A DNA stretch of 64,000 nt from assembly GCF_004010195.1 (NCBI RefSeq), contig NC_057718.1:79998555-80062554 (forward strand). Reading direction: 5' to 3'. Under the pieces are notes generated by a model that was given only the letters and a program-made list of their open reading frames with translations, was not told the DNA's origin and made no database searches. Source of the DNA: Chiloscyllium plagiosum. Its lineage: Eukaryota. The position numbers and the translations under genes are program-made. Shown one piece after another: positions 6,277 to 63,300 of this stretch. How positions within the stretch are numbered: position 1 is the stretch's first letter; each line of letters starts with the position of its first letter.

Positions 6277-6408
6277 GGTAAAAACAATGACTGCAAATGC
6301 TGGAAACCAGAGTCTAGATTAGAGTGGTGCTGGAAAAGCACAGCAGTTCAGGCAGCATCCAAGGAGCAGTAAAATCGACGTTTCGGGCAAAAGCCCTTCA
6401 TCAGGAAT
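6277..6408 (-). mobile_element. Mini-PLE (family 1 Penelope 3' terminus)
   Basis: Reverse complement matches the 3' end of the Penelope copy at 13517-13646. Confidence 0.9.
6373..6408 (-). ncRNA. Minimal type I hammerhead ribozyme, intact core
   Basis: Minus strand AUUC-CUGAUGA-A-GGGC-UUUU-GCCC-GAAAC-GUC-GAUU; predicted cleavage after C at 6377. Confidence 0.8.
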
Positions 6409-6665
6409 ATCTCTGTCGAGCTCTTCGTGTTTTTGAAAATCTCTACCAAATCATCCCTTATCCTTCTCTTCTTTAAGGAAAACACTTCTCAGAACTATCA
6501 GCATAACTGAAGCCAAGTGGTCTTCTGAAATAAATGTTATGTAAAGTGAATTCAAGAATTTGCAATTGGTTAAGGACTGCACAGACTTAAAAATAGGTAA
6601 CTTGAATTTTATTGTTAGTCTGTATCAAACCAATTACCTCATTTTAGTACAGCAGCAGACACTAT

Positions 6666-8531
6666 GGGTGGAATTTTCCTACAGCAAGTAAAATATGGAC
6701 CATAGCTTGAAATGTGGGATGACTTCTAAAGTGTTAAGTGATGGTTTTTAGGATGCTGGCAACAAACAGTCACATTTTCCAAATAAATTCTGGATGTCAA
6801 GACAGGATTCTCATCAGTATGTTGCAAGAGCCTATTAGTAGACATTATTTTTCATTAGATTCTTCATTAGAATCTAATCTCACCTCATAATATGCAAATT
6901 CCTGTCCTACAAACTGACAGATAGAAACCAGATGCTGAGAATTTCCAGCATGAAAGTTGGAGTGGATACCTGATGATTCCAACTCATCGCTTGCTCCTCT
7001 AGATCTGAGTGCTGGCTCTAAAGGCAATCTCAATGGGCACTGGCATCTGGCATGTATCAGACACTCTGCACCCTCATAGTACATCACAAAAGCACTTCTA
7101 CAATTTAATGCTGCACTTTGGACTGCATTGGCACCTTTCACTACTGTGCTACAGCGGGAATACTTTGCATGCAGAAATAGGCAACTAGCTCGTGGACTGG
7201 ACCAGGCTGCAGCACAGATCTGTTTGCTTGCACTCTTGGTGCTTGGATCAAACATTCCTGCCTTACTTTGCCTCGCCTTTTTGAGCTTTGCCCCTCAAGC
7301 AGAGGTTAAAGGTTCATAGCTCTGATGTACTGCTTTGCAGGTTAGTGCAGACAGAAAGCCAGACAGTTGGTCATTTTGGTCAGCAGACATCAGTCAAGTG
7401 GCTTGCTTTATGGTACATCGCTTAATCAATTTTGCACCTCACTGTGTGCCAGCAGCCTAGATGCCAAATGCACTGCCTATACTGCAACCAAACAGTCATG
7501 TCTCAAAGTCTAAGGGGAGAAGTCCTTAATGAAAGCCAGGGAGACACCCATCAATTAGGTTAATACACTAAATCAAGGGCAGTCTCTGATACAAGTCCAG
7601 TGATTTGGGCATGGTCTGTCAGTCAGTTTTCCACTTGGGGCCATCAAGGTCAAGATAATTTCCTCATAAAGAATGAGAAGCTGAATTTCATTCACTCCAT
7701 CACCCATCTTGGTTCTTTCTCCCCTACAGTGGGCCATTTTCTGCTGGATGACACAAAAAGAGGGATTGAATGAGAGCAAAGTGGGTGGCACAATTACTGG
7801 TGCAAGTAAGTGAGTAGTTAGTATAGGGACTATGCAGGGTTAGTAGTGTTGTATGGGTGACAGTGAGTGAGGGAAAATGCTGTATACAGTAGCGACAATG
7901 GGAGAACATGAGGTTTGGTGGCAGGCTGGTGCACTCGTAGATATAGAGTGAGTGTGAGGAAAGAGAGAGAAGATGGTGGCACTTACAGAGTGCATAAGGT
8001 CATTGACCTTCTTCCTACAGTCCTGGGTGTTCCTCCAGTTGGCTGAGGCCACACTGACCTCAGGAGGGAACCTTGGACCAAACTGGTGGGGTCTGATGCC
8101 TGTAGCCTCCTCTGTTTGTCATTAGAGGAAGAAGATAGTCTTTCACTGCACCACCCCATTCCCCAGAACTCCATGTCCTAGTCCACAAACTGGGGATGAA
8201 TTTCCCCTTTGACATGTCTGAGGCAAATGTCATAAACCGTGCAGGGAGCTCCAGGCTGACAATGTTTGTCTGGATGCAAAATGGCCTTTCACAGATGACA
8301 TTGGTAACAGGAATCCTGGGACATCCCTGCAAATATGGATACTTATTGCTGCAAATAGGAGGGAGAATTGAGCAAGCATTGGGTGGAGAGGAGCATGACA
8401 GGGCATGGTAGGTAGTTAATGAGGCAGATGTGGGAGGATAACGTAGGAAAACCTGCCATACTTCACAAGGAAAAAGTCTCGGCAAACCTCAATGAAAATA
8501 CACTTTGCCAAAATATGGTAAGATTCAGTTC
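6666..8531 (-). mobile_element. Harbinger-derived element with a spliced Myb/SANT-like ORF remnant
   Basis: Exon near 8230-7987 ends RNTQDCRKKVNDLMHS|gtaagt; acceptor near 7743, then QKMAHCRGERTKMGDGVNEIQLLILYEE. Degenerate TIRs GGGTGGAATTTTCC / GGTAAGATTCAGTTC, each flanked by TAT. Confidence 0.6.
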
Positions 8532-9809
8532 TATGACACTGAGACTGAGACCGAAATTGTGCATGTATAGGAAATGGTCCTCCTTATGCAGCAGCACAAA
8601 TAAACACAGCCTTTTTAATTGTCCCTTTTCCAAGTAATTAAAAGTAAGTCTGTGGCATTCCTTTGGAATTTGTATAACCTAAAAGCAGCTTGTTTTAAAA
8701 ACAAAGTTGAATTTGTTATAGATTTTCATTTCATGGTGCTGAATAAGGAATTCTAAGTTATTCAAACCATCAAGTGCCCACTGAGGTAAACAGATGGAAA
8801 CTGAGTCACAAGTTTTTAGGAACCATACCAGCAGGTGCACTAAACTGCTGTGAAACATCTGTTTTTAACAGGATAAAGCGGCTGGGGAATGATTTTGACA
8901 TGCTTTTAAATCACAATTCCGCTAAACTTTAAATGAGCGATATGCTTTATAGAATATTGTTTAAAGAAGAGTATAGTACGTGCGGTACACCAAAGGATTA
9001 TTATTTTACAATCGCCTTTGTTGAGTTGATCCAGTGGGCCTACCTTCTTTTTGATTAACGAGTGAAAAAGACATTGTGTGGAGCCTTTCCTATCATTCAC
9101 TGCCTGGAGATAACCCAATGGAATTGGTGGCAGTTACGAGGAGAACAGAGGGGAACATGCATCTGCTGTTGTTTTCTGAGTCTGAACAGGTTTAAAACAG
9201 AAGTCCAAATGAATAGCAGCAGAAGTCTACTTTGTTTGAAATTAAGTTTGAAATTAGAAATTAATTTAAAATAATAATGGACTCCAGGTGATAGAGATGC
9301 TTCATGAATTAAGAATTAGTGAAACTTTAAAACTTGTAACCATATTCATTCCTATATTCCATCTCTACAAAGCAGAAAACCAGAGGGGAACCAAACTCAC
9401 CACCTACATACAAGTTACACACACAAGGCACAAAAACATAAGATCTTGCACCATGTATTTTGTAACATTGTGTCATTTCTGTCTCAGCTTTTCACACTGT
9501 ATTGACTTTGACAGATTGGTGTTCGAGCTTTTAGATAAAGCTAGTTTGTCACTATGCCATAACCTGACACTTTCCCTCCATAACAGTCACTCCAGAAACT
9601 GCTACTGAATACTCATTTTGACAAAATAATTTTTTTCTTTTTTTAAGGAAAACAATGCACCTGACACCTGACCTTATTGCACTTTGAGGCAAGTACATTG
9701 CATACAGATCAGGATTATAATCCTAAGCCCTAATGAAATAACCCTTTTCTTCAATGCATCTTCAGGTTTGAAATCATACAATATGTGAAAATGATTTCTT
9801 GAATGCTGC

Positions 9810-10022
9810 AATGCCTCTTAAGAAACTTGATACCATTGTGGACAAAATGACTTGATTTACTGCCCATCTATCACCTTAAACATTCATTCATCCATGAACA
9901 GTGAAGCATGGCTAAAGTGTGCATCACCCAGACTGCAGCAACTCAACACAGTATCATCAATAACACCTCCAAACCTCTGACCTCTGTCACCAAGGTTGTA
10001 GAAACAGTGGGTGTATCATTCT
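9810..10022 (+). mobile_element. Degenerate LINE (CR1/L2 group) ORF2 3' end
   Basis: LKKLDTI..K...PSITLNIHS..H...CSNS...HLQTSDL resembles a common elasmobranch LINE C-terminus. Confidence 0.5.
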
Positions 10023-10400: not shown

Positions 10401-11676
10401 AAAATCTAAAACAGAAACTCATCCCAGGGAAGAAGAATTATACTAAGGAGCAGATGAGAACAATAAAAAAGTCATCAGCTGCCATCCTGAAAAAGACTCC
10501 TTTATTCTTACTCTGCCTTCTGCCAGTCAGCCAATCCATTATCTATGCCAATACCTTGCCCCCAGCACCATAGGTTCTTATTTAGCAGCCTACTGTGCAG
10601 CACCTGCCAAACACCTTCTAGAAATCCAAATAGATCACATCCATTGGCTGTCCTTTGTCTAACTTGCATCTTACCTCCGTAATGAATTCTAATGGGTTTG
10701 TCACGCAGACCCTCCTCTTGACAAAGCCAACTTGACTCAGCCCTATTTTATCATGCCCTTACAAATACTCCGCAATCTCATCCTTCACAAAGGACTCTAA
10801 AATATTACCAATAACTGAGGTCAGGCTAACCAGCCTAAATTTTCCTGTCTTCTGCCTCTTTCCCTTCTTAAAATGGGGTGTGATGGTAGCTATCTTTCAT
10901 TACTCTGTGTCCCTTCTTGAAAGATAACCACTAATGCCTCTACTATCTCCTCCGCTATCTCCTTCAGAACCCAGTCCATCTGGTCTGGATGATTTATCCA
11001 CCCTAAAATCTTTCAGATTCCAGTGTGATGGCCACTACACTCACCTGTACCATGAGATTCTTAAAGTTCTGATATGCTGCTGGTGTCTTCCACTGTGGAA
11101 ACTGATGCAAAGTATCTACTCAGTTCCTTCACCATTTATTTCTTTCCCATGACTACTTCTTCAGCCTCATTTTCCAGTGATCAAATGTCCACTATTTCCT
11201 CTCTCTTACCTTTTAAATATCTTTAAAAAACTCTTGCAATCTTTTTTGATATTACTAGCTAGCTTTCTCTCATATATTATCTACTCCACATCACGCATCC
11301 CCCAACCTTATTGATTTTTTTGTTATCTTCTGCTGCTTTTCAAAGGCTTCACAATCCACTGGCTTCCCACGAATCTTCACCATGTTGTATGCTTTTTCTT
11401 TTGATATTTTTGCTGTCCCCAACTTCCCTTGTCACCCACGATTGCCTTGTCCACCTCATTGTATGTTTCTTCCTCCTTGGAATGATTTCTGCTATGCCTC
11501 GTGAATCATCACCAGAATCTCCTGCCAGTGCTGATCCACCATCTTCCCTGCTAGGCTCCTCTACCAATCAACTCAGGCCAGCTCCTCCCTCATGTCTTTG
11601 TGGTTACCTTTACTCAATTGTAGTATAGCTATGTCTGATTCCGGCTTCTCCTTTTCAAACTGACTATATTATCCTG

Positions 11677-13646
11677 ACTATACTATCAAGCCAGCGGATA
11701 AAGGGGGTGCAGTGGTAGTCTGGCGCACTGACCTCTACACCGCTGAAGCCAGACGCCAATGCAAAGACACCTCCTACCGTCCCCTCGACCATGACCCCAC
11801 TCCCCATTATCAAACCATCATCTCCCAGACCATACAGAACCTCATCACCTCAGGAAATCTCCCACTCACAGCTTCCAACCTCTTAGTCTGGGAACCCCGC
11901 ACTGCCTGGTTCTACCTCATTCCCAAGATCCACAAGCCTGACCGCCCGGGCGACCCATTGTCTCAGCATGCTCCTGCCCCACTGAACTCATCTCTACCTA
12001 CCTCAACACTGTCCTATCCCCCCCAAGTCCAGGAACTCCCACATACGTTCGAGACACCACCCATGCCCTCCACCTTCTCTAAGACTTCTGTTTCCCCGGC
12101 TGCCAATACCTCATCTTCACCATTGATATCCAATCCCTCTACACCTCCATTCGCCATGACCAAGGCCTCCAAGCCCTCTGTTTCTTCCTCTCCCGATGTC
12201 CCCAACAGTGCCCTTCCACCGACACTATCATTCATTTGTCTGAACTGGTCCTCATCCTCAACAATTTTTCCTTCGAATCCTCCCACTTCCTCCAGATCAA
12301 AGGGGTAGCCATGGGCACCCGTATGGGCCCCAGCTATGCCTGTCTCTTTGTAGAACAGCCCATCTTCCATAGTTATACCGGCACCACTTCCCACCTCTTC
12401 CTCTGCTACATTGGTGACTGCATTGGCGCCACCTCATGCTCCCGCAAGGAGGTTGAGCAATTCATCAACTTCACCAACACATTCCACCCTGACCTTAAAT
12501 TTACCTGGACCATCTCTGACACCTCCCTCCTCTTCCTGGACCTCTCCGTCTCCATTAATGACGACCGACTTGATACCGACATTTTTTACAAACCCACCAA
12601 CTCCCACAGCTAGCTGGATTACACCTCTTCCCACCCTACGTCCTGCAAAAATGCCATCCCGTATTCCCAATTCCTGCGGCTCCACCGTGTCTGCTCCCAG
12701 GAGGAACAATTCCAACACAGAACACACCAGATGGCCTCCTTCTTTAGAGACCGCAATTTCCCTTCCCACGTGGTTAAAGATGCCCTCCAATGCATCTCGT
12801 CCACATCCTGCACCTCCGCCCTCAGACCCCACCCCTCCAACCGTAACAAGGACAGAACCCCCCCGATGCTCACCTTCCACCCTACCAACCTTCGCAAAAA
12901 CCAAATCATCCAACGAATTTCCGCCACCTCCAAACGGACCCCACCACCAGGGATATATTNNNNNNNNNNNNNNNNNNNNNNNNNNNNNNNNNNNNNNNNN
13001 NNNNNNNNNNNNNNNNNNNNNNNNNNNNNNNNNNNNNNNNNNNNNNNNNNNNNNNNNNNNNNNNNNNGTGAATCCTCTTGCAAGGATGCCTGCCTTGAAG
13101 AAGTTTTCCTCCTCTCTCTACAAGAATCTCAAGGAATCCCTCTCCCACTGCAACTCCCAGGTCATTTCCTCTGCCCTGAAGCTCTTCAACCATGTCCTGA
13201 AACAGACTCGCTACCACAGCCACATTTGCTTCCTCAGTGCCTGCCTCCGTAACCAACTCATCCTACACGGATTCCGGATCACCTTCATCCCCACCCCTAT
13301 TCACCCATTGTACTCTTTGCTACCTTCCACCACCCTCCTCTCTGACCTATCCCCACCCCCATTCACCCAGTGTACTCTTTGCTACCTTTCCCAACCCTCC
13401 TCCCTGCCCTATCACCTCCATCCCCATCCCCATTCACCTTTTGTACTCTATATTACTTTCTCCCCACCCCCACTCTCCTCTCATTTATCTCTCCACCCTG
13501 CAGGCACTCTGCCTCTATTCCTGATTAAGGGCTTTTGCCCGAAATGCGATTTTCCTGCTCCTCGGATGCTGCCTGAACTGCTGTGCTTTTCCAGCACCAC
13601 TCTAATCTAGAATCTGGTAACCATAATCTGCAGTCATTGTTTTTAC
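11677..13646 (+). mobile_element. Penelope-like retroelement, 5'-truncated, partial tandem, spanning a gap
   Basis: IKPADKGGAVVVW, FYLIPKIHKP, QIKGVAMGTRMGPSYACLFV, FLDLSV..TDIFYKPT; after the gap an ORF N-terminus, then a 3' UTR with a decayed HHR at 13517-13552. Approximate TSD CTATAYTATCCTG at 11664-11676 / 13647-13659. Confidence 0.93.
12960..13067. other. Assembly gap
   Basis: Run of N. Confidence 1.
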
Positions 13647-14254
13647 CTATACTATCCTGGGTTACAACTACATTTCTCTTTTCTACTTCCTCTTGAATGG
13701 CTTCCTGTTCCACGGTGTTACAATTAATTTGCTCATCCTCCCTTCAGTCTCCATTCTCATCCACACAAGGAGCAAGAATCTCAAATCTGTTAGTAAAGCA
13801 CTATCTCCAGGATCCCTCAACCTACTTCGCTTGTAGTTACATCCTCTTGTCCCTGACCACTGACTGCATTCAAGGTAATTCAAGGTGTAATTACATCCTG
13901 AAACACTGTGATCAGGTAACTCTCCTTGTCTCTGACATGTCACAGTGCTCCAATTCATCAAGGCTGAGCCAAAGTTTCTGAAGCAACCAACACTTGCTCC
14001 AAATGTGGTAGCATGAATCACAATGTGATCCATCAACTCCCACATCTTGCATATACAACACATCATCTGGCATCTTTATTTTTATGACTTAGTTCTATGA
14101 TATCCCTTTCTGATTAAGTCTCATTTGGCAGCAGTAACACCTCAACTGCAACCACTATAGTGGTTGGAATGTCAACACATACAACATAGGAATGACCACG
14201 CATAATGCTGTTTAATACCACTGGATAACAGTGATCTCAACTTGAGTGGATTTG

Positions 14255-14745: not shown

Positions 14746-14867
14746 TTAGATTATAGCACTAATAGCTTTCAGATTTTACAACTTTTAAGAATTATTCATA
14801 CAAACAACTGCAGTAGCCAAACAGTGATGCAGCCTGCAACCAAACTCTTGGAAAGATCAATAAGAGT

Positions 14868-22102: not shown

Positions 22103-22510
22103 TAGGGTTGGAGGATTTGAGCCATAGGGAGGGACTGAAAAGACTGGGGCTGTTCTCCCTGGAGCAGTGGAGGCTGAGGGGGGACCTTATAGAGGTTTAT
22201 AAAATCATGAGGGGCATGGATAGGATAAATAGACAAAATATTTTCCTTGGGGTGAGGGAGTTCAGAACATAGGTTTAGGGTGAGATGGGAAAGACATAAA
22301 GGAGACCTATGGGGCACTTTTTCACACAGAGGATGATATGTGTATGGAATGAGCTGCCAGATGAAGTGGTGGAGGCTGGTACGATTGCAACATTTAAAAG
22401 GCATCTGGATGGGTATAGAGGGATATGGGCCAAGTGCTGGCAAATGGGACTAGATTAGGTTGGGATATCTGGTCAGAATGGACGAGTTGGACAGAAGAGT
22501 CTGTTTCCGT
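22103..22510 (+). mobile_element. CR1/HER1 3' fragment fused to a Penelope
   Basis: GLEDLSHREGLKRLGLFSLEQWRLRGDLIEVYK; the 3' UTR stops at CTGTTTCCGT. Confidence 0.92.
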
Positions 22511-23985
22511 TTCCCCGGCCCCCAATGCCTCATCTTCACCATGGATATCCAATCCCTCTACACCTCCATCCACCATGACCAGGGCCTCCAAGCCCTCCGT
22601 TTCTTCCTCTCCCGACGTCCACAACAGTACCCTTCCACCGACACTATCATTCGTTTGGCTGAACTGGTCCTCACCCTTAACAATTTTTCCTTCGAATCAT
22701 CCCACTTCCTCTAGACCAAAGTGGTAGCCACGGGCACCCGTATGGGCCACAGCTATGCCTGTCTCTTTGTTGGCTATGTAGAACAGTCCATCTTCCGTAA
22801 TTACACTGGCACCACTCCCCACCTCTTCTTCCGCTACATTGATGACTGCATTGGCGCCACCTCGTGCACCCGCGAGGAGGTTAAGCAATTCATCAACTTC
22901 ACCAACACATTCCACCCTGACCTTAAATTTACCTGGACCATCTCTGACACCTCCCTCCCCTTCCTGGACTTCTCCATCTCCATTAATGACGACCAACTTG
23001 ACACTGACATTTTTTACAAACCCACCGACTCCCACAGCTAGCTGGATTACACCTCTTCCACCCTATCTCCTGCAAAAATGTCATCTCATATTCCCAATTC
23101 CTCCGCCTCCACTGTATCTGCTCCCAGGAGGACCAGTTCCACCACAGAACACACCAGATGGCCTCCTTCTTTAGAGACGGCAATTTCCCTTCCCACGTGA
23201 CTAAAGATGCCCTCCAAAGCATCTCGTCCACATCCCGCACCTCCGCCCTCAGACCCCATCCCTCCAACCGTAACAAGGACAAAACCCCCCTGGTGCTCAC
23301 CTTCCACCCTACCAACCTTCACATAAACCAAATCATCCGCCGACATTTCTGCCACCTCTAAACGGACCCCACCACCAAGGATATATTTCCCTCCCCACCA
23401 CTTTCCACCTTCCGCAAAGACCATTCCCTCTGTGACTACCTGGTCAGGTCCACGTCCCCCAACAACCCACCCTCCCGTCCTGGCACTTTCCCCTGCCACC
23501 GTAGGAATTGCAAATCCTGCGCCCACACCTCCTCCCTCACCTCNNNNNNNNNNNNNNNNNNNNNNNNNNNNNNNNNNNNNNNNNNNNNNNNNNNNNNNNN
23601 NNNNNNNNNNNNNNNNNNNNNNNNNNNNNNNNNNNNNNNNNNNNNNNNNNNNNNNNNNNNNNNNNNNNNNNNNNNNNNNNNNNNNNNNNNNNNNNNNNNN
23701 NNNNNNNNNNNNNNNNNNNNNNNNNNNNNNNNNNNNNNNNNNNNNNNNNNNNNNNNNNNNNNNNNNNNNNNNNNNNNNNNNNNNNNNNNNNNNNNNNNNN
23801 NNNNNNNNNNNNNNNNNNNNNNNNNNNNNNNNNNNNNNNNNNNNNNNNNNNNNNNNNNNNNNNNCACTCATCTATTGTACTCTATGCTACTTTCTCCCCA
23901 CCCCCACCCTCCTCTCATTTATCTCTCCACCCTTCAGGCATTCTGCCTGTATTCCTGATGAAGGGCTTTTGCCCAAAACGTCGAT
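22505..23985 (+). mobile_element. Penelope-like retroelement (Neptune-like), 5'-truncated, spanning a gap
   Basis: IFTMDIQSLYTSI, VATGTRMGHSYACLFVG, FFRYIDD, cysteine linker GTFPCHRRNCKSCAH; ends at an HHR (23951-23985) with GAAA mutated to AAAA. Confidence 0.93.
23544..23864. other. Assembly gap
   Basis: Run of N. Confidence 1.
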
Positions 23986-25162
23986 ATTAATCTCCAGAGT
24001 AAGTCCAATAGACCAGGAAAAGTAGGAATAAAAGCATGCAGGTAGCAAATTCTGAAATACCCCTGTGACCTATACTGCACTTTAAAGATGCTTTAAAAAT
24101 CTAAGTTCCTTTTTAAATCCATAACATTTCACACCTTTTTAGAATTGTAAAACTCAGAAACACCTGACTCACCTTGAGCAACAAACATATTAGCACCGAG
24201 AGCAAATACTGAAAGCCTTGCTTAAAGTTCCAGTTTTTTTTATCACACTCAGGTAAATTGTCATTAGCATTGACATGGTATATTTGTCAAATTCTTCTTC
24301 ATGAGGACAGGACTTTAAGAACCCATCATGCAGTCCTCAGTGGGTGACTGGACAGTGTACCATTCCCATCATTCCCACCATTTCCTACTAAACTTGATTT
24401 TTAATCTGCAAATGTTGGTGTATACTGAATCGACCATCTCATATTGAGACGCAGATATTCAAATATCTTACTAAAGTCAGTAGTTCATATGTTACCATGA
24501 ATACTTTATGTCTCAGTAACAATGATATTTCAGATGATGCTGACAGCGCCATCATATAATGTTGAAAATCAAATAAAGTCCATACATTTTCAATGAATAA
24601 ATCTTTCAAAATAGTACAAAATGGGAGCAATGAGCTCCAACTGCACTCCCTTCCACACCATAAACTGTCCTTGATTCTACAACCACATTATATTAGCTGT
24701 TCAGAGATACATAAATATATCACTTGAGTGCTGTTATGGATGAGGTTTCCTTTTAGATGTTGATCTTCATTTCCTCTTGATTTCCCTCAACATCAAACAG
24801 CAGAAAAGATAGACCATCCAGGTCTTCAGTGACATTGATAAATTGTTCTTGAGCAAAGACATTCCAGATGGGTAACGGCAGTTCTATCAGCTGAACTAGT
24901 GACATGACTGAGACTAGCTACACAATAAATGGTTAGGTGCAGGCAAGCAACCTGTGCTACATTATTAAATGGTGCAGCATGTTGTGAATTGTATCTAACT
25001 TGGAAGTTTACATATCATGCACACCATATTTTGTCCATCTATTCACAGTATTTCTTTAGAGTTCAAGAATTCAAGTTCAGTAGCAGCAACATAGTATTAA
25101 AGTTAAAACTTTTGGAATATTAAAAATTTATACTTAAAGGTTACATTACTACATTAGCTTAC

Positions 25163-25281
25163 CCTGGTTAAAGTCAATGTTCCTTGCTGACACGTGCTAC
25201 ACCGCACCCTTAGTTTCCCAGGCTGCACTGCTTTGCATGTTGTCTTGCAATAGACATAAAATCTGTTGTAAGGTCTTGAAC
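25163..25281 (-). CDS. prkn: Parkin RBR E3 ubiquitin ligase, internal exon orthologous to human exon 4 (RING0 domain)
   Basis: Acceptor ttttttacttttcag and donor AGG|gtaagc; 119 nt, phase 1 to phase 0. Translates [40 protein letters not shown] versus human [40 protein letters not shown]. Confidence 0.97.
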
Positions 25282-26029: not shown

Positions 26030-26446
26030 GTGGTACAGTGGCTCAGTGGTTAGCACTGCTACCTCACAGCACTAGGGATCTGGGTTTGATTCTATCTCGG
26101 GCAGCTGTCTGTGTGGTGTTTGCACATTTTCCCTGTATCTGCATGGGCTTCCTCTGGTGCTCCAGTTTTCTCCCACAGTGCAAAGATGTATAGATTAGGT
26201 GGATTGATCATGCTGAATTGCCTATAGTGTCCAGGGATGTACAGGCTTGATGGATTGGCATTGGGATATGGAGTCGAGAGTGTGGTGCTGGAAAAGCACA
26301 GCAGGTCAGGCAGCATCCGAGGAGCAGGAGAATCAACTTTTTGGGCAAAAACCCTTCATCAGGAATAGGATATGAAGGGCTATGGCGAGTGGATCTGCTT
26401 CGGATGCTCTTCGGAGGGTCGATGTGGATTCAATGTAGGGATTCTT
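26030..26446 (+). mobile_element. HE1 SINE containing a nested mini-PLE
   Basis: GTGGCTCAGTGGTTAGCACTGCTACCTCACAG head and core; tail resumes after 26374. Confidence 0.85.
26271..26367 (-). mobile_element. Mini-PLE family 1 with decayed HHR and 7-bp TSD
   Basis: GGATATG at 26264-26270 and 26368-26374; minus strand CTGATGAAGGGTTTTTGCCCAAAA. Confidence 0.85.
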
Positions 26447-27369
26447 TGAAATAGTGAGGGATATTAAATTGAAATTCTATTCATGAAGGAAGGTAAAGTG
26501 AATACTTCAGGAAAATGAGGGAGTTTTTTGATGGCCAGATAATAATTTCTGTAGCATAGATAAGGAATGCACCTTGAGACCTTGCAGAATCCCAAGTGTA
26601 GTAGACTTCAAGGGAAATGCCTAGGATATTGAAGATCCCACTGGGCAATTCCCCTACACCTGGAGCCCTCTGAGAGAATCAATTTAAATTGAAAAATTCA
26701 GAGACCTCCACTGAAGTTAAGTAAATAGTTACTCAAGAAAGGTTAGAGTAGTGAATATGTAGTCTTGAGTAACTATTAAACTAACCCTCAATTTAACTCC
26801 CACAACATCAACAACACCTACCCCCGACCCATTACAGACACCATACCCTGGTCCCTGACCCAAGATTCCATTTCACCACAAGCCCCTCCCTAAGACTGAT
26901 GTAGACAAACAAAAGACTGGAAGAACATAGCAAGCCAGACAGTATCAGGAAGTGGAGAAGTCAATGTTTTGGGTATAACCGTTCTTCCCCAAGACCTGAC
27001 ACCACTAGATCTGCCTCAATACCTGGGACCTCAATTATGTTATCCTACTGCCAGATCTGACTACCCCTTTCTCCTGCTCTGTTCACAGACCCCATTCCCC
27101 AACTCTGCATCCAAACTGCCCTCCCCAACCCTCCTTCCCAATTGGCTGACCTGACCATCCATTCCACCATTCCAATCCCAATGTACTTATCCCATTCCTG
27201 ACATGACCGCATCCCCAATCCGACCTGCACCCCCTCCACTGTTCCAGACCAATCTCCCCTCACACCCGCAGCCAGACCCAAACCCACTTGGAACTCAACA
27301 CAACAATGCCTTCCTTACACTTTGCCAGACCCAATAGCTCCCACTAAACATAACCTAGTCCAAACCTTA

Positions 27370-38100: not shown

Positions 38101-38287
38101 AAGTTGTATGATACGTTGATCTTTTACTATAAATTCTGTGTCCTATGATACTGCACAAATAGCTACCTAACGAAGGAGCAGCACTCCAAAAGCTTATACT
38201 TCCAAATAAACCTATTGAACGATAACTTGGTGATGTGTGATTTTTAGCGTTGTCCACCCCAGTCCAACACCAGCGCCTCCACATCAT
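38101..38287 (+). mobile_element. Family 2 HHR-bearing terminal fragment (probably PLE-derived), HHR decayed
   Basis: CTAACGAAGGAGCAGCACTCCAAAAGCTT is a mutated form of 43376-43404; the downstream tail is shared. Confidence 0.75.
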
Positions 38288-38827
38288 CCTCAGAAGTGGT
38301 CAAGCAAGCAACTCCATTGTAAAGTAGAAATACACCTTCATAGACAATTAGCAAAAGCCTTTTTCAGTCATTCATGGGACGTGCATGTCACTGGCTAGAC
38401 CAGGCTTAATGCCCATCCTGAATTGCCCTTGAAAGGGTGGTGGAGACTACCTTCTTGAACTGCTTAGTTCATTTGGTGCAGCTGTAACTGCTGTGTTGGC
38501 GTAGTTCCAGGATTTCAACTCAAGGTTTTAGCCCATGTATTTCTAACCATCCTCAATATGCAAGTGATCTCAATGATTAACAAAATATCATTTCTCCATG
38601 ATAGTCTTCAGCAAACTAAATTAAGAGTTTGTTCTTTCTCCAGAGGTTAATTTTGAAACACAAGAATATCACTCAATAATTGTTTCAAACCTTTTTCCGA
38701 TATAATATTTCAAAGTGATATTGAAGTTCAGAAAATTTCCCTCGTAGACTTTTTCCTCCATCAATGTAGTACTGCTGTGACAACTGCAGACTGTGTTTGC
38801 ACAAGACTTTTAGAATTTTTTTGTAAT

Positions 38828-39860: not shown

Positions 39861-40179
39861 GGAGTCTACAGTCTCCAAGACTTTACAGCATTATGTAACT
39901 GCTAATAGTTGAACGTTTAGGTCAGTAATTTCTTTGAGATTGTTAGACTGCTTCAATTCTTGTTTAATTTTTATCTATTTGAACTCATTTTGATGGTGGG
40001 ATTTAACCTTCACGAGGCATTTTGTGTGTCCAGAATTCGTAATTTGGTCCTTCAGTTGCTGACTGAACAAAACACTCTAGTCTCCATGGCTTGCTGATGG
40101 GACTTCATTGCAGTGACCAGCTACCATGTTTATACCTCAATAATTTCTGAATATTGAGTATTGTCACAATCCTATTTAG

Positions 40180-40372
40180 GGTCAAGAGTGTGGTGCTGGA
40201 AAAGCACAGTAGGTCAGGCAGCATCTGAGGAGCAGGAGATTCAACGTTTCAGGCAAAAGAGAAGGGCTTCTCTCTGCTCTCCTGCTCTTTGGATGCTGCC
40301 TGATCTGCTGTGCTTTTCCAGCATCACACTCTAGACTTGAATCTCCAGCATCTGTCGTCCTCACTGTCACCT
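40180..40372. mobile_element. Fold-back mini-PLE (family 1), 14-bp TSD
   Basis: ACAATCCTATTTAG at 40166-40179 and 40373-40386; inverted arms meet at a scrambled HHR. Confidence 0.9.
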
Positions 40373-40399: not shown

Positions 40400-41630
40400 T
40401 TTTTCTCTCATCGCTCTTTCATTTTCTGCTTGCAGTTGTTGAATGAACACTTGATGGCCTGTTTCCAAAGTTTGATGTGTTTTTTTCCAAATGTATCAAG
40501 TTCATGTTGATATTCTTCATGTATGATTGTAAAGATGTGCTGCACACATTTGTCCATAAAGGTCGGGCATCATCCACCCTGCCTGAAATTTCTTTCTCCA
40601 CAAATCCATGTTAGGGCTGTGAGACCTCTTTTCTGCATGAATGAAGAGTCCTGTCTAATTTCAAAAACCAAGACATTTTAGTTGTTGTGGTCACTTTGGT
40701 GGCTGTTGAAATGTTTAAAGCTTTACTTGTGTTCATTTGTGACTGAACTTTTATAAAGTGTTCTTCTTGTGTCTCTTCAGTGGTCCAGCCTTCATCACAG
40801 GGAACAATTTCTTCATCTAACTGTGATTGTTGTTGCTGTTCCAGCCTTTTGCATGTCCTTGATAGGATCCATGAAACAAGCAGACAACTTTACCTCTTTG
40901 TTACCTCTTCAACAAAGGCGTGGCTCTCCTCGAATAAACAGCAGAGACTTCACAAACAGTGTTATATGAACCCAAGAACAGAGGAAGGTATCAGGCCTCT
41001 TACTCATTAAATGAACAACACGTGCAGTAGATTCCTTTCTTGTCACTCTACAGAAACAGCAAACTAACATCTAGAATGTCATCTTCTGGCTGGCCACCTT
41101 CATGTTTGCCACCTTGGTTTCCCACAATTTACAACTTTTCTGTTGAGAAAAGTAAAGGGTCTGCATTACATTTTTGAAGACCTAGGATTGGAGTATCTGA
41201 AGTGGAAAATGATTACTGAAACATTGAGTTAGCTTCAGTGTCTGCTAACCAAAGAATTTTCAAACTGCACAAGCAATGGCTTTTGCCTACAAGTGGAACA
41301 TCATCCATCCTCCTTGAAGCTTCCACTAAACTACATTGGAACTGTGAGACCTCTTTCCTGCATGATGATTTGTAGGTGCCGGTGTTGGACTGGGTATACA
41401 AAGTTAAAAATCACACAACACCAGGTTATAGTCCAACAGGTTTATTTGGAAGTACTAGCTTTTGGAGCATTGCTCCTTCACCACCTAGTGTTTCTTTTTT
41501 GATTTTTAACTTCCTGCATGATTGAAGAGTCCTTTCTAATTTCACAATCCAAGATGTCTCAGTTGTTGTGGTCACTTTGCTGGCTGTCAAAATTTTTAAA
41601 GCTTTACTTGGGTCAATTTGTGATTGACCC
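40400..41630 (-). mobile_element. Two tandem decayed RTE-like LINE 3' pieces
   Basis: RVDDARP / RMDD, YMKNINM and LWKQAIK resemble the RTE C-terminus; 40617-40748 is repeated at 41342-41629. Confidence 0.45.
41367..41510 (-). mobile_element. Family 2 mini-element with decayed HHR, 12-bp TSD
   Basis: TTCCTGCATGAT at 41355-41366 and 41511-41522; minus strand GTGAAGGAGCAATGCTCCAAAAGCTAGT. Confidence 0.85.
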
Positions 41631-43292: not shown

Positions 43293-43459
43293 TGATTCGG
43301 ATATGCCGGTGTTGGACTGGGGTGTACAAAGTTAAAAATCACACAACACCAGGTTATAGTCCAACAAGCAATCACCTGATGAAGGAGCGTCGCTCCGAAA
43401 GCTAGTGTGCTTCCAATTAAACCTGTTGGACTATAACCTGGTGTTGTGTGATTTTTAAC
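43293..43459. mobile_element. Fold-back family 2 mini-element, 12-bp TSD
   Basis: Perfect 39-bp inverted repeat 43328-43366 / 43424-43462; TTTAATAGTTCA at 43281-43292 and 43460-43471. Confidence 0.9.
43372..43409 (+). ncRNA. Minimal type I hammerhead ribozyme (family 2), intact core
   Basis: CAC-CUGAUGA-A-GGAGC-GUC-GCUCC-GAAAG-CUA-GUG; stem I CAC/GUG, palindromic AGCU stem III, predicted cleavage after A43404. Confidence 0.8.
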
Positions 43460-45179
43460 TTTAATAGTTCACAGCAATTATAAAGGAATCATTGCAATTT
43501 TCTTGGTTATTATGAAATACTGGTCCATGTGACCTGGGAACACCAACTGAAAGCAATACTGACATAGAGAAAGTTAAGATACAGATCCATCTGGACTTGT
43601 TGATGCAAACGATAGCGTGGGCACAAGGTGGTTAGATCAAAGATGCAACACAAAGAAGAAGCAGATAGGAACAGCAAAGGGGACATAGAATTCTGTTAGG
43701 TTAAGCCAGCAAAGCTCTCTCTGCAAAGACTTTTTTTCCTGTTTGGCAGTAAGAAGTAAAATAGAATGCCGGAAGCTCTTGGGAACCAATGTATGAGAGA
43801 GCTAAAATGGACTGATTCCTAAAAAGCCTTACAAATACCTCAAGTGTTTAAAATACCTCTGGGTTTGTATCAGAAGTAGCCAAACCATGAACTTCTGTGT
43901 TACTGATTGGTGGACTGAAAAGGAACTCTGGAAAACCACATCATTGGGACTGTTATGACCTGAGGGAGAGCAGGGCTTTTGAAGAGTGCCTTGCTGATGG
44001 TAATCACATCCACGGGCTGACAGCTGTCGTTGGACAGCACTCCTGACCTACCCTATGTGAATAAAGAACAGTATACTGTGTAACTGTGTGGCTACAAAAT
44101 ACCATAAATGCTGAATGTACCTTCAACCCACAGCTGTTACCAGCCCACATGAATCTGTATCTTAACCACCTCCATGTCAGTAATGCTTTCAGGTCAGGTG
44201 TTCCCAGGTCACATGCACCAGTAGTTATATTACTCAAGAAAATTGCAAAGATCCCTTTATAATATATGTGAACTATTAAAAGTCTTTTTAGATGTTCATA
44301 AAAGCAACTAAAGAAACCCTAGAAACAAAATAACATGCTGCACACATAAGGTGTGATCGCAGAAACCCAAAATCCGAGCTGAGAAAGTAATTATTAAATT
44401 GCTTTTAGGAAAGAAAGTGAAGTGGAGGGGTTTAGGCAGCAATTCTCAAGAATTGCTTATGGTTGTTTAAGACATACCTTTGTTGCATGTACTATTTCAC
44501 TATTAGTTATTAATCATTTGCATTGGTTCTGATTTGCTTTAAAGTAAGAGTTATAAATAGTGAAATCTTGTTAATTTTCTCTTGTGGGGATCATAACATA
44601 GTTAAGAGCATAAGTACCCTTTTAGTAACCTAATCATTTTTAATGGCTGCTAATTAATTTTTCTGGTTCAAAAAATTAGCAATTAAAAGTGCAGAGCTTC
44701 ATTGCATTAAGAGATGAATTGATATTGAAGATGTTTTTAAATATATTTCTTCTTACTTTTCCACTCTTATTTTTCTCTTTCCTTTAATCCAATCATTCTA
44801 GCCATCTCATTTTATTTCTCTGAATCTGATTTGGAACCCAATTCACACAATCCAGTTTGCACTCCTTCTCAGTTCATCTATTGCTTATTTCTCAATGATT
44901 AAATTTCATTGATTAAGAAAATATACTTTTGACCTTGCCATTCACCGAAGTCCCATATGCCCTAATGCGCTACTCAATCATTGCCAGCTTGCAATTCCAG
45001 CAATTTTGAATGCAAAGTATTTTTTTTGAACTGATGGATGAAGGAAAAAGTCTAAGTAACTGGACATGTTGTGTAATATCCTACTCCAAGAAATTCAGTG
45101 TTATCATAACACAGTAAGGAAAATTACGAGGAGGAACACTGAAGCTCATTCCTCTAAGCTCTCCCTTTGATAGGAAGAC

Positions 45180-48604: not shown

Positions 48605-48736
48605 AAGGCATAAGTGGGTACTGCAGATGCTGGAGATAAGAGTCAAGGTTAGAGTGGTGCTGAAAAGCACAGCAGGTCATGCAGCATCTGAGGAGCAGGA
48701 AAATTGACGTTTCGGGCAAAAGACCTTCATCAGGAA
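48605..48736 (-). mobile_element. Mini-PLE family 1 with HHR at 48701-48736 (core intact, stem mismatches)
   Basis: Minus strand UUC-CUGAUGA-A-GGUC-UUUU-GCCC-GAAAC-GUC-AAUU, followed by the standard tail. Confidence 0.88.
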
Positions 48737-57210: not shown

Positions 57211-59043
57211 CAATAGAACGTTTGCCCTTTGGTATATCTAAACCCCCATGGTCACACATAGCCAACATGGAAAACCATACACCTGTACCCATTCCTCATG
57301 GTCCCTCAAGTTCTCCATGCCAATCTATGCCATTCTGACCACACAAAATAGCCCTGCATGCCATCTTAGTCAGCCTATGCTTTTCTACCCACTTCTATGG
57401 TCCTTTAGAGTTCTGCTGCAAACATAGTGCTAACTCACAGCAAACTATATCCCACACATAACTTTACAACCCGTGACCAGACCTCATGTTGGACCTCTGC
57501 TAGGATGAGATTAACTAACACTCTTAATTAATGAATGAAGAATTCACTATAAGATCCTAACAGGGAAGAGGAGAAATAGGCCATTTGGCCCATTGAAACT
57601 GCTCTTCAATTCAATAAGATCATGGCTGTTCTGGTATCATCAATTGTACTTTTCTATCTTTTCCCATTAATCCTTGGTTTTCTTATTGACTGCAGATTTG
57701 TCTATCTTGGACTTGAATATTTTTAACAATGCAACCTTGACACCTCTGCGCAGTGAAAAATTCCACAGATTCACTAAGAAGAAATTTCACCTCACCTTTG
57801 TCTTAAATGGGTGGTTCTTACTCTGAGATTCTGCTCTTTGGTCTAGACTCTTCCACAAGGGGAAATAACTTCTCTATATCTACCCTGTCAAGCCTCCTAA
57901 TAATCCATGTTTCATTAATTTCTCCTCCAACTTTTCTCAACTCCAATCTAGGCCCAAGCTAACCCCTCCTCAGAAGAAAATCCTTGAGTAAACCTAAAGA
58001 ATCTTCTTAGGACTACCTCCAATGTCAGTATATCTTTCCTTAGGTAAGGCAAATAAAGTACTTTTAATATTCTAAATGTGGTCTGACTAGTGCTTTGTAT
58101 AGATTTAACAAGATTTCCATATTCTTAAGTATTATTCTCTTTGAAATAAAGGTCAACATCTTATTTTCCTTCCTTGTTACCCAATGAACTTGTATACTAG
58201 CTTTTTGTGATATGTCAGAGACCCCCAACACCCCCCGAACAAATCTCATTGTGCTGCAGATTTCTGAAGTTTCTCTCCATTTAAATAATACTCAGTTGCT
58301 CTATTCTTCCTACCAAAGTGCATAACCTTACATTTTCCCACATTGTATTTCATCTGCCACGTTTCTGCCCACTCACTTGGCCTGTCTATATATATGCCTT
58401 GGTAGACTTTATGTCTCATCCTCACTACTTGCCTTCCTATCCATTTTATACCATCCATATACTTGGCTATAGGACATTCATTTTTCTTATCCAAGTCACA
58501 AGTAATTGTAACCATAGCACTCACCCTGTGGCATCCCACTAGTTGCAGGTTACTATCCTGAACATGCTCTCTTTATCCAAACTCTCTGTCTTCTATTAGT
58601 TGGCCAATTATTATCCAACACCATGGGTTTTTAACTTAAGTTATCTTATATATGGTAACTTATTAATCACCTTATGGAAATTCAAATACATTACATCTAT
58701 TGGTTACTCTCTATCTTTCCCTGATGGTTACCTCCTCAAAGAATTATAATTTATGTCAAGCATCATTTCCCTTTCATGAAGCCATAACAATGCTGCTTGA
58801 TTATATTATGCACTTCTAAATGACCTGCTATTACATCTTTTATAATCTAATATTTTCCCAATGACAGGTGTTAAGATAACTGGCTGAAAGTTATCTATTT
58901 TCTGTCCCCCTCCTTTTTTGAACAAAGGTGGTACATTCTCATTTTTCCAATTATCTGTGGCATTTTCAAAATTGAAGGATTCTTAGAACGTTTCTACCAG
59001 TGTGCCCACTATCTATGTAATTACTGCCTTTAACATCCGAAGA

Positions 59044-59252
59044 GGAGAAAGTGAGGACTGCAGATGCTGGAGATCAGAGCTGAAAATGTGTTGCTGGAAA
59101 AGCGCAGCAGGTCAGGCAGCATCCAAGGAACAGGAGAATCGACGTTTCGGGCATAAGCCCTTCTTCAGGAAGGGCTTATGCCCGAAACGTCGATTCTCCT
59201 GTTCCTTGGATGCTGTCTGACCTGCTGCACTTTTCCAGCAACACATTTTCAG
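59044..59252. mobile_element. Young fold-back mini-PLE (family 1), 16-bp TSD
   Basis: CTTTAACATCCGAAGA at 59028-59043 and 59253-59268; near-perfect arms of about 85 bp meet at 59164-59168. Confidence 0.95.
59137..59171 (-). ncRNA. Minimal type I hammerhead ribozyme, intact core
   Basis: UUC-CUGAAGA-A-GGGC-UUAU-GCCC-GAAAC-GUC-GAUU; predicted cleavage after C at 59141. Confidence 0.78.
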
Positions 59253-60733
59253 CTTTAACATCCGAAGATACCACTAATCAGATTCAGGGAACTTATCAGC
59301 TTGTAGCCTCATTAGTTTTCCAAGTACTTTTTTCTCCAGTGATAGTTGTATTTATTTCTTTCCCCCAAATTTTGTTCCTTACCCCTTGATTATTTAGTAT
59401 GTTTTGAATGCTGTCTGTGTCCTTTACTGTGAAGACAAATGTAAAGTATTTAATCAGTTCCTCTGTCATTTCCAGACTCCCCATTCTTATTTCCTCGGAC
59501 TCTGTAAGGGCCTATGTTCTCTTTTATGTTTGTAAAGAAGATTTTACTGTCCATTCCTATATTACTTGCTAGTCTATTTTTCCCCTCTTTGCTATTTTTT
59601 GGTCATCTTTTGTTGGCTTTTAAAACTTGCTCAATCATCTGGTTTAACACTAATGTTTGCCACTTTTTCTGATTTTTTTTTCAGTTTGATACTTAACTTT
59701 ACTTCCTTGGTTAACCATGGTTGATTTACTCTCTTCCTAGAATCCTTGTTTCTTACTGGGATTATCTTTGCTGCTAGTCATGAACTGATTCACTTCTTCA
59801 ATTTTTTTTTATGCTAAGCTCCTTTCTAATCCACTCCAGCCAACTCTGTCCCCATCCCTTTGTACTTACCATTATTTAAGTTTTGCATAGTTATTTCCAA
59901 CCCCAGTTTCTCCTCAAACAGAATGCTAAATTCCATCATTTTATGGTAATTGTTGCCTAGGAGATCTTTTACTCTCAGAACATCTAGACAACCTGCTTCA
60001 TTACACATTCCAAATCCAGAATAGCCTGATCGCTGGTTGGATCCACAATGTATTGTTCTGGGAAACTGTGTCGAAAATTCTCTATGAATTCTTCCTTATT
60101 TTTATCTCTGCTAATTCGGTTTACCAATATACACGAAGGTCACTCATAATTAGTGTTCTGCCCTGTAATATCCCTCAATATTTCCTAATTTGTTCTCTAT
60201 CGTACCGTACAGCTACTGTTAGGGGCCTGTAAAGTGTGCCAACAGTGTCTTTTTCCTCTTGATATTTCATACCTCCACCATACAGATTCTATACCATCCA
60301 ATCCACTTTCTTGCCACTGTACTTACTTCATCTCATAATAACAAAACTCGCATTTTTCCTTCCTTTCACAAAGGCACATACCCTTGAATATTTACTTCCA
60401 TGCTTTGATCTCATTCTATAAGATCATATCTATTAACCTTTGTGTCATTAATTAATTTACTTTGTTCAAACTTCCATGCACATTTAAGTAAAGAATCATT
60501 AATGTTGCCTTTTAACCATTTGTTTTCCCACCTTGATCCTGTTTGTTGTTTCTTTTATGCTTGTACACTGTGTCCTTTCCTGTACCACTCTGGGTACCAC
60601 TAAACAAATAGGTGTTCTATCATACCATTGCATGCTTTTGGGAGAAAGTGAGGACTGCAGATACTGGAGATCAGAGTCGAAAAGTGTGGTGCTGGAAAAT
60701 CTCAGCAGGTCAGGCAGCACCCAAGGAGCAGGA

Positions 60734-60770
60734 GAGTCGATATTTCAGGCATAAGCCCTTCATCAGGAAT
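60734..60770 (-). ncRNA. Minimal hammerhead motif, core intact, AUC site
   Basis: AUUC-CUGAUGA-A-GGGC-UUAU-GCCU-GAAAU-AUC-GACU. Confidence 0.6.
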
Positions 60771-61258
60771 GTAGCATTTGTCTAACCAATATCAATTAAT
60801 CTTCAATTTAAAATAAAATTTTGACCTCGGAGCAATTACCATTACCAATGATCCTTCTTCAGAACTCAGCATCTACGAAAAACTGATATTTGACTTTCTT
60901 TCCTCTCTCTCTGGGCTCTGTCTCTAATGATGTGCTCACTCCTTTTTCCACCACCCTCTGTCATCAAGCAAAATGCCTTTTTTTTCAATGCTGTCAGTTC
61001 TGAAGATGGGTCACTGGACCCAAAAACTTAACTGTTTTCTGTCCACAATGCTGCCAGATCTGCTTACTTTCTCCAGAAATTTCTGTTTTTGTTTAAAAAT
61101 AAACTGTCTGAAATATTAATAAAAATCAGAGATTGGTATAACACTGTCTGTTGATGTTTCATGACTGATTTCACAATCTTTAATTACCAGAGTTGGGTTA
61201 CCTGACATTTCAGTTTTCTTGAGAGCTCCAACTGGTTGTACACTGCATGAAGTGTAGC

Positions 61259-61295
61259 ATGCCTGATGAAGGGCGAATGCCTGAAATGTCGACTC
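61259..61295 (+). ncRNA. Minimal hammerhead motif, core intact, with wobble pairs
   Basis: C-CUGAUGA-A-GGGC-GAAU-GCCU-GAAAU-GUC-GAC. Confidence 0.55.
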
Positions 61296-61696
61296 TTCTG
61301 TTCCTTGGATGCTGCCTGACATGTTGTGCTTTTCCAGCGCCACACTTTTTGCCACTATATGCTTTTGCTTTATAAGCTTAGGTTTTCCTTCTCCTGAACC
61401 TTCTTCCTTATTTAATTTAAAGCCTTCTTAATACACCTAATTATTGATTCACCAGGATACAACCAGTGTGGTTCAAATGAAGCCTGTTCCACCAGAATAG
61501 CATCCTTCTATCCTCAGTATTGATGCCAGTGTCCATGGCCTGAACCTCACTCCTCCCACACAATCTTTGAGCCATCCATTAATTATTTGACTTTGGTTAT
61601 TCCATGCCATTTGTCCATGGTTTAAGTAGTAAATTTGAGAGTTTCTGCTTTTTCAGTTTAGCTTGTAACTGTTCAAAATATTTTAGCAAAATCAAT

Positions 61697-62059
61697 TTTT
61701 TTAAATTGATTCATGGGATGAGGGTGTCATTGGTAAGGCCAGCATTTAGTGCCCACTCCTAAGTGCTCAGAGGGCAGTTAAGAGTGAACCACATTGCTGT
61801 GGGTCTGGAGTCACATAGAGATCAGACCAGGTAAAGATGGCAGTTTCCTTCCCTAAAGGACTTTAATGAATCAGATGGGCTTTTCTGACAATCAGTAATG
61901 GATACATGGTCACCATTAGATTCTTAATTCTACATTTTTTTTCATGCAATTCAAACTTCACCATCTGCCATGACAGGGTTTGAACATGGATCCCTAAAAT
62001 ATTATCTCAGTCTCTGGAATAACAGTCCAGTGATAATACCACTAGGCCACCACCTCCCC
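61697..62059 (-). mobile_element. tRNA-derived SINE with LINE-like tail (third SINE family)
   Basis: Minus-strand head GGGAGGTGGTGGCCTAGTGGT (A box) and GTTCAAACCC (B box); related pieces at about 37465-37640(+) and 38360-38520(-). Confidence 0.75.
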
Positions 62060-62585
62060 ATAATAGTGTTGGTACTAATGATGATAATTAGTTGGCTCTT
62101 GCCCCACTCCAGGTTCCACCTCAGGTCTGAAGAGATGTTCTTAATCATGGAACCAGGCAGACAACATAAGACTTTGGGACTCAGAAAGCAGGATCTATAT
62201 CCCCAGTTATATTGCCCCACACCAGAATAAAATTCCTATTTCCTTCCTGAACATGTACGGATCCCTATACCACAATGTCATGGTCAGTTTCCTCATCTTC
62301 CCTCTCATCCACACAGCCTGTGAGAACATCATAACTGTTGGACAACTGCAGAGACTGAAGCTCCTCAAGCGCTATTCCTAGGGCCTCTATACTGGCCTCA
62401 CTTGGAGTCATACCCACCTGTCTTTAATGATTAGATCACTTAAATTGCTTACAATGAAGGGTGTGACCACTATTTTAATAAGAAATTTTCTCATTGATAA
62501 AAATGTATTCACTACATTTAGCTTAATTCATACCCACACATAAACAAACCCTGGAATTCATTGCCCCACTTCATGGAGCGTAAAG

Positions 62586-63055
62586 CCAGTTGGAGCTCTC
62601 AAGAAAACTGAAATGTCAGGTAACCCAACTCTGGTAATTAAAGGTTGTGAAATCAGTCATGAAACATGCAGGTCTTAAGTCAACAGACAGTGTTATACCA
62701 ATTCTGACTTTTATTAACATTTCAGACAGTTTATTTTTAAACAAAAACAGAAATTTCTGGAGGAAGTAAGCAGATCTGGCAGCATTTGTGGACAGAAAAC
62801 AGAGTTAAGTTTTTGGGTCCAGTGACCCATCTTCAGAATTGTGACAGAATTGAAAAAAAATTTTTATCTTGATGACAGGGGGTGGTGGAAAAAGGAGTGA
62901 GCACATCGATGGAGACAGAGCCCAGAGACAGAGTGAGGAAAGAAAGTCAAATACTAGTTTTTCGTAGATGCTGAGTTCTGAAGAAGGATCACTGGTAATG
63001 GTAATTGCTGCTAGGTTAAAATTTTATTCTAAATTGAAGATTAATTGATCTTGGT
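62586..63055 (+). repeat. Source arm of a ~470-bp inverted duplication (partner 60785-61235); includes family 3 PLE-tail pieces
   Basis: Aligns in reverse complement throughout (roughly 90% identity by eye, with one indel of about 12 bp). Confidence 0.95.
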
Positions 63056-63124
63056 CAACTAGACATATTAAAGGACAAATGGAAAAGACAGAGATATAGT
63101 AATACGGGTTCAACCACAAATCAG

Positions 63125-63300
63125 GTCAGGCAGCATCCAAGGAACAGGAGAATCGATGTTTCGGGCATAAGCCCTTCCTTAGGAGGCTTATGCCCGAAAC
63201 GTCGATTCTCCTGTTCCTTGGATGCTGCCTGACCTGCTGCGCTTTTCCAGCAACACATTTTCAGCTCTGATCTCCAGCATCTGCAGTCCTCACTTTCTCC
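63125..63300. mobile_element. Young fold-back mini-PLE (family 1), 15-bp TSD, inserted in a CR1 tail
   Basis: TCAACCACAAATCAG at 63110-63124 and 63301-63315; arms meet at stem II of the HHR, and CTGANGA is lost. Confidence 0.95.

Follow-up and report, generated by a model that had tools for sequence, protein, structure and literature searches.

A 64,000-nucleotide stretch of the Chiloscyllium plagiosum genome (contig NC_057718.1, positions 79,998,555 to 80,062,554; hereafter, the window) carries numerous short repeats with hammerhead ribozyme motifs inside introns of the prkn gene. These units are probably the terminal repeats (pLTRs) of coding Penelope-like elements, and most of them would be run-off cDNAs copied from the capped, uncleaved 5' end of the element RNA. 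The copies were studied in the window and in an unbiased sample of 160 evenly placed 10-kb stretches, taken in two batches (1.6 Mb). Single copies (arms) of the family-1 type number 302 in the sample; 257 of them were kept, and 45 were dropped because of identity below 80%, an aligned length under 45 nt, or a 3' end before +59. All end positions are numbered from C3 of the hammerhead core. Extrapolation to the whole genome gives approximately 0.67 million family-1-type arms and 0.19 million family-2 arms.

The motif is a minimal type I hammerhead: the CUGANGA core, GAAA, NUH, stems I and II, and a palindromic stem III are all present, stem I being only 3-4 bp long. A hammerhead descriptor matched 65 times in 1.06 Mb (a 1-Mb sample plus the window), never in the reversed sequence, and 1, 1, and 0 times in three shuffles. 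Exact cores genome-wide amount to 21,180 for family 1, 16,625 for family 2, and 355 for family 3, with 0 for each of the reversed patterns. An Rfam scan gave no match to the hammerhead models and only weak hairpin matches to microRNA models. Apart from position N7, which varies freely (T, A, G, C), the families share an invariant core, and stems I, II, and III change in compensatory fashion between them. Thus, the motif is under selection in the parent elements. In a fourth family, absent from the window and represented by 1,200 exact matches in the genome, U3-A8 replaces C3-G8; among the first 100 of these matches listed, U3 is found in 93 and G8 in none. This family (copies at L049:4825+, L050:354+, and L050:1590-) is also marked by a TATAAA box and by a stem I that is palindromic and 4 bp long. 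A preliminary description of the window had reported about 15 such motifs, of the minimal type I with an extra A and a palindromic stem III, and had noted covariation between families. The structure and the covariation hold. The motifs are real and exceed chance, and a direct scan with profile searches found a homologous copy at each site, but only five window copies pass the descriptor, and only three (6373-, 59137-, and 43372+) retain both the full core and the palindromic stem III. In the remaining copies the core or a stem is altered.

The parent elements can be recognized from longer copies. In genomic copies the family-1 tail continues directly into the start of an open reading frame (ORF), and upstream of long family-1 copies we observe a pyrimidine-rich 3' untranslated region (UTR), a GIY-YIG fragment, and a CX4CxxC linker. 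Fragments of reverse transcriptase (RT), linker, and GIY-YIG endonuclease were found upstream of long copies across families 1, 2, and 3; for family 2 the GIY-YIG fragments are 720-970 nt upstream of the cores (loci L170 and L106), and for family 3 the distance upstream of the core is 393 nt (locus L200). The coding link rests on ORF fragments, and the Pfam GIY-YIG model weakly matches two of five of them (E-values 0.0017 and 0.026, with scores below the cut-off). Thus, each family is the pLTR and tail of a coding Penelope-like element; the Penelope origin had already been given in the preliminary description. The Penelope pLTR traits seen here are the hammerhead, a tail with ends at ~+90 and ~+126, and inverted copies. 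A CX2-5CxxC linker between RT and endonuclease is reported to mark the Neptune and Nematis clades (PMC8557442). By its CX4CxxC linker, observed in the window and at least nine loci, family 1 is of the Neptune type, as judged from sequence; the linker region was not recovered for families 2-4. The window holds two long decayed copies. In the first of them G8 and the cut site of the hammerhead are changed, and the RVT_1 match (E-value 3.9e-5) is below the cut-off. The distal part of this copy (13069-13648) and locus L132 share an identical junction of the ORF start with the 3' UTR (100% over 212 bp); a copy with an internal deletion seems to have moved.

The 5' ends of the units are sharply concentrated. 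The 257 family-1 arms comprise 103 hairpin arms, 63 solos (starting between -20 and +10), 57 long copies, 27 arms starting further inside, and 7 arms by gaps. Thus, 193 arms belong to short units (hairpin, solo, or with a motif-internal start) compared with 57 long ones, so that the large excess of 100-200 bp units noticed in the window is real. The family-1 arms have 93 ends in 1,693 exposed nucleotides between -6 and +6, and 26 ends in 6,988 nucleotides upstream of -21, an approximately 15-fold difference; the two samples, independent of each other, give equal rates at the edge (0.056 and 0.055 per nucleotide). For family 2 (78 arms), the corresponding counts are 34 ends in 619 nucleotides and 10 in 1,983. 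The family-2 edge is at -8/-9, with a single end between -13 and -31, and the family-1 ends peak at -3/-4. At the predicted cut site there are 18 alignment ends between +26 and +33, many from divergent families or internal deletions. Inspection by eye left about 6 genuine ends among the 257 at +28/+29, which is above the tail background and not above the neighboring stem region. The excess at +28 is at most small. In four of 30 ORF-start loci (L133, L140, L144, and L148), a downstream unit whose start falls between -4 and -10 directly adjoins an ORF fragment. These junctions suggest RT jumps from an RNA 5' end to a 3' end, and the A-rich runs at the junctions of L140 and L144 are possibly copied poly(A).

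The TATAAA box occurs at -38/-40 in family 2 and at -33 to -35 in families 3 and 4; in all three families it precedes an A in an initiator-like context by 29-32 nt. This region falls outside the short unit, and stubs without it are predicted to be dead ends. An extra G before the start A was counted in solos sorted by eye from the first 100 matches listed per search, after hairpin, tandem, and long rows were dropped (69 of 100, with 2 duplicates, for family 1; 73 for family 2; 66 for the control at -3; and 65 for family 4). The preceding base is G in 21 and A in 10 family-1 solos (p=0.002), and it is G in 14 of 27 family-2 solos (p=0.003); the control at -3 shows the background level, 8 of 34. 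Untemplated 5' G has been taken as copying of the cap in L1 and SVA (PMC4859970). From these counts we infer a capped RNA start at the 5' edge of the hammerhead. No published cap or start-site signature of Penelope copies was found in a literature search that left Repbase, Dfam, and paper supplements outside; the families may already stand in these sources.

The 3' ends, in families 1 and 2 alike, gather at ~+90 and ~+126, in agreement with the published tail. Head-to-head hairpins account for 40% of arms. Among 70 classifiable hairpins of 84 (14 have an unclassified tail), 65 combine a long and a short tail, 5 have two short tails, and none has two long ones. The solos end at the short site (24 of 63) about as often as at the long one (36 of 63); therefore, the short site acts as a true start, as it does in vitro (PMC11167929). 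Target duplications of 12-19 bp flank 28 of 51 hairpins, compared with 1 of 600 control pairings. An example of a young insertion is provided by the hairpin at 59028-59252: in all four DNA runs contigs join 59027 to 59253, that is, the site is empty, so this hairpin is one recent event.

Based on these data, the following series of events can be proposed. A TATA/initiator promoter in the pLTR would start the RNA 4-8 nt before the hammerhead core, which would then fill the first ~32 nt. The element RT would be target-primed inside the RNA at the two fixed sites, ~+90 and ~+126. With priming in the 5' tail, it would copy ~95-130 nt and run off the cap, often adding G. A single retained cDNA would give a solo unit. 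If both cut DNA strands carry a cDNA, and the two were primed at different sites, their head-to-head joining would give a hairpin. Long copies would arise when the 3' tail is primed, or when the RT jumps to the end of another RNA. Hammerhead cleavage would remove the cap, and cleaved RNA would rarely serve as a template. The pairing of long with short tails and the use of both sites by solos fit two priming events, one per strand, which the in vitro behavior of the Poseidon element PAc of the lizard Anolis carolinensis would permit (Frangieh et al., 2024, PMC11167929). There, too, two internal RT starts bound the tail, both DNA strands are extended, uncleaved RNA is the main substrate, and the hammerhead lies beside the ORF start. 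The differences are that family 1 is apparently of the Neptune type, that its ORF starts after the tail rather than in stem II, and that the evidence here is genomic only.

Several observations weigh against this reconstruction. The 5' ends are spread from -12 to +9, and instead of TATAAA family 1 shows TTATCT, a TATA-like sequence, at -34/-36. The G excess is not clear in family 4 (12 of 35, p=0.30; 12 G versus 9 A, p=0.10). In the unbiased sample, the ATTC start is intact in 14 family-1 solos, of which only 1 has G at -5 and 10 have the template base, C, because many ends begin a few bases further upstream. A second G control, at -6 of family 2, is dominated by a subfamily with T at this position and leaves 4-5 usable rows. 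Target duplications were found for only 11 of 56 solos. The arms of young hairpins share private changes, with 0 differences in 100 nt in one case. Finally, the double-hammerhead fold is 8-19 kcal/mol above the best dimer fold. The active dimer fold not being the most stable one agrees with the weak or protein-assisted cleavage reported earlier (PMC4209133, PMC11167929), and we predict that the hammerhead works in the parent RNA as a slow ribozyme in need of a dimer or a protein. The 703 reads aligned from one RNA run form no pile-up at a start or an end, and they bear neither on the start site nor on cleavage.

Because of the shared private changes, formation of hairpins by fold-back from the same parents stays a serious rival, although we regard it as rather unlikely. 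The cDNA would self-prime at its end and be copied back, and the short tail would result from resolution of the second arm by endonuclease or repair. Near-identity of the arms is what fold-back predicts; many hairpin centers show a 3-nt TTC/GAA microhomology, no cross-family hairpin was found in the 1-Mb sample, and self-priming has already been proposed (PMC3846280). However, against fold-back stand the use of the short site by solos, the extra G on both arms of some hairpins, and two head-to-head chimeras of families 1 and 2 (L158, ~2851-3076, and L187, ~1405-1651) observed among pattern-selected loci along with 35 same-family pairs.

Another explanation concerns the 5' peak, which might lie within a longer RNA and reflect a barrier there, in the form of a protein bound to it, its structure, or a site of processing. 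The two families tested both have the peak, ~20 nt wide, at the hammerhead 5' edge, family 4 lacks a clear G excess, and in D. virilis an intron ends at helix I (PMC4209133). On the other hand, a fold should stop RT on its 3' side and not after the core, the edge shifts with the TATA box between families, the G excess is restricted to the A start, and a shared upstream (spliced first) exon was looked for among short copies and not found. A barrier is, therefore, an unlikely cause of the peak. We attach a similarly low probability to mobilization in trans, similar to that of short interspersed elements (SINEs), in which 5'-truncated, TATA-bearing long copies would fire short capped hammerhead-tail RNAs copied by the protein of the element; the non-autonomous idea of the preliminary description would be strongest in this form. 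Such sources are plentiful, since 57 of 257 family-1 arms keep upstream sequence and none of 18 arms reaching the end of the tail in the 1-Mb sample ran into the subfamily-A ORF start. Nevertheless, the lizard element requires RNA that continues into the ORF for ~55-60 nt beyond the RT start (PMC11167929). RNAs made of tail plus flank do not have this stretch, and the stubs have no sequence lineage of their own.

Recombination between the pair of pLTRs in a full-length insertion has been put forward for certain solo pLTRs (PMC3846280) and would leave the same product with a target duplication. It is very improbable as the main source of solos, as it cannot make hairpins, whose 5' ends match those of solos, and the ratio of solos to long copies is no higher with age (18:14 for young and 28:23 for old copies).

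The preliminary description had suggested a separate non-autonomous, retrozyme-like family and had regarded a smooth distribution of 5' truncations as an argument against it. The 5' ends proved to be sharply peaked; however, the family itself is not supported on other grounds: the stubs lack the TATA region, tandem arrays are absent, each site has a different junction, and short copies closely match long ones (of 103 hairpin arms, 17 share 97% identity or more with a long copy). A SINE-like non-autonomous family is not supported either, given the absence of an internal promoter in the short unit and this same match to long copies. Non-LTR retrozymes of animals (PMC7229834; bioRxiv 10.64898/2026.07.22.740005) are likewise non-coding, carry a type I hammerhead, and derive from Penelope pLTRs. 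They are described as head-to-tail tandem repeats with a hammerhead per unit and circles of 170-400 nt, whereas the units studied here are dispersed solos and hairpins; assignment to this class, defined by head-to-tail tandem units in the cited preprint, is not supported. Despite the high copy number, small size, and type I hammerhead, self-propagation via hammerhead-cut circular RNA, or co-option of the ribozymes by prkn, is extremely improbable: only 5 same-strand neighbors occur among 172 family-1 arms and none in the window, the ends are not at the cut site, and most window cores are damaged.

Nor is anything special indicated for prkn. Its assignment as the host gene on the minus strand was correct, as an exon in the window has a Pfam RING0 match; the next RING0 match lies 111 kb further on, and the RING1 match 242 kb further on. 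Enrichment of the units in prkn or a strand bias was rejected, as the density of arms in the window (239/Mb) is not above that in the sample (196/Mb, p=0.26), and 8 family-1 arms are on the minus strand and 7 on the plus strand. The prkn-sense orientation of minus-strand copies thus carries no signal.

In total, the window contains 15 family-1-type arms, 4 family-2 arms, and 2 family-3 copies (Table 1).

Table 1. Penelope-derived copies and associated features, in window coordinates
Feature	Position	Strand	Details
Family-1 solo unit, intact hammerhead	6276..6409	-	C3 6404, predicted cut after 6377, 5' end -5, long tail
Long decayed Penelope-like copy	11664..13648	+	RT fragments, N gap (12960-13067), ORF start (13069-13280) fused to the 3' UTR, hammerhead, tail
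Long decayed copy	22505..23990	+	RT, CX4CxxC linker, N gap, 3' UTR, hammerhead with altered G12, tail truncated at +34
prkn exon, first half of RING0	25163..25281	-	Pfam match
Family-1 solo unit, core changed, short tail	26274..26367	-	
Old arm of a further related family, absent from the preliminary description	26917..26987	-	
Family-1 unit starting inside stem II (+17), long tail	31535..31642	+	
Family-2 copy, core changed, TATAAA box 38128-38133	38108..38288	+	
Family-1 head-to-head hairpin, short and long tails, 15-bp target duplication, damaged cores	40179..40372	.	
Family-2 unit, core changed	41363..41483	-	Flanks: 11-nt inverted tail stub, 12-bp direct repeat (by eye)
Family-2 hairpin	43307..43460	.	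Right arm with intact hammerhead (C3 43376, start -7); left arm from +48 on; target duplication of 12-13 bp
Family-1 solo unit, start -3, stem II mismatch	48606..48736	-	
Young family-1 hairpin with tails to +126 and +91 and a target duplication of 16-17 bp	59028..59252	.	Empty site in four DNA runs
Likely one composite insertion	60640..61351	.	Inverted family-1 arm (long tail), ~470 bp copied stretch, family-1 arm (short tail), diverged 16-bp direct repeat (13/16)
Source of the duplicated stretch, with old family-3 copy (C3 62836, G12 changed)	62567..63055	-	
Family-1 hairpin with tails to +61 and +126 and a target duplication of 15-16 bp	63118..63301	.	

A family-3 motif at 60996+ and its mirror near 62800-62840 had been listed as two copies. 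Both are present (61000+ and 62836-), but they lie within one ~490-bp inverted duplication, 89% identical, and G12 is changed in both; hence, they represent one old family-3 copy. In the composite insertion, ~470 bp of the nearby intron DNA was likely captured, inverted, between two family-1 arms in a single event, and the captured strand is prkn sense relative to the right arm. Folded as prkn-sense RNA, the 59137 hairpin forms a ~90-bp duplex (-168 kcal/mol) in which the hammerhead is buried. Long near-perfect duplexes are formed in the prkn pre-mRNA by 59043-59252, 63118-63301, 40179-40372, and 43307-43460; these are possible substrates for editing or small-RNA processing. Other repeats of the window are a tandem repeat at 39397-39633 (38 bp, 6.2 copies) and two inverted pairs, 45671-45799 with 47109-47237 (129 nt, 100%, 1.3-kb spacer) and 54515-54610 with 55002-55097 (96 nt, 99%, 0.4-kb spacer), which may be young elements or assembly artefacts.

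Many of these traits have been described in other animals. The pLTR hammerheads of metazoan Penelope-like elements (Cervera and De la Pena, 2014, PMC4209133) likewise have a type I minimal core with an extra residue that lies between 9 and 10.1, G10.1-C11.1, a palindromic 15.2-16.2, a U3-A8 variant, many families per genome, and mostly single motifs. The copy numbers extrapolated here are far higher, and the end positions are mapped here and not there. The insertion unit of endonuclease-containing (EN+) Penelope elements (PMC3846280, PMC8557442) also features head-to-head inverted pLTRs, a one-sided tail of 30-40 bp, target duplications, TATA and initiator in the pLTR, and host DNA captured between pLTRs. 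In C. plagiosum, by comparison, the ORF-free minimal form dominates and the pairing of long and short tails is near-strict. The extra G points to a capped sense RNA as the template, whereas an antisense template was favored in PMC3846280. Thus, earlier publications already cover the hammerheads of Penelope ends, the inverted copies, the tail on one side, and the TATA and initiator in the pLTR (PMC4209133, PMC3846280, PMC8557442); the present data add the evidence on the start site and the cap.

In summary, it is conceivable, and we propose it tentatively, that hundreds of thousands of copies in this genome preserve, as fossils, a record of Penelope insertion, in which capped uncleaved sense RNA is primed twice, once at each fixed tail site and one per cut DNA strand, the hammerhead at the very start of the RNA acts as a self-decapping switch, and full-length copies need an RT jump from the cap to the RNA 3' end. 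These data bear on how Penelope-like elements, the closest relatives of telomerase RT, insert and on the role of their hammerhead (PMC3846280, PMC8557442, PMC11167929). The end statistics provide in vivo support, with exact positions, for a capped sense template uncut by the ribozyme, and a very abundant class of repeats would be explained without a new family of elements.

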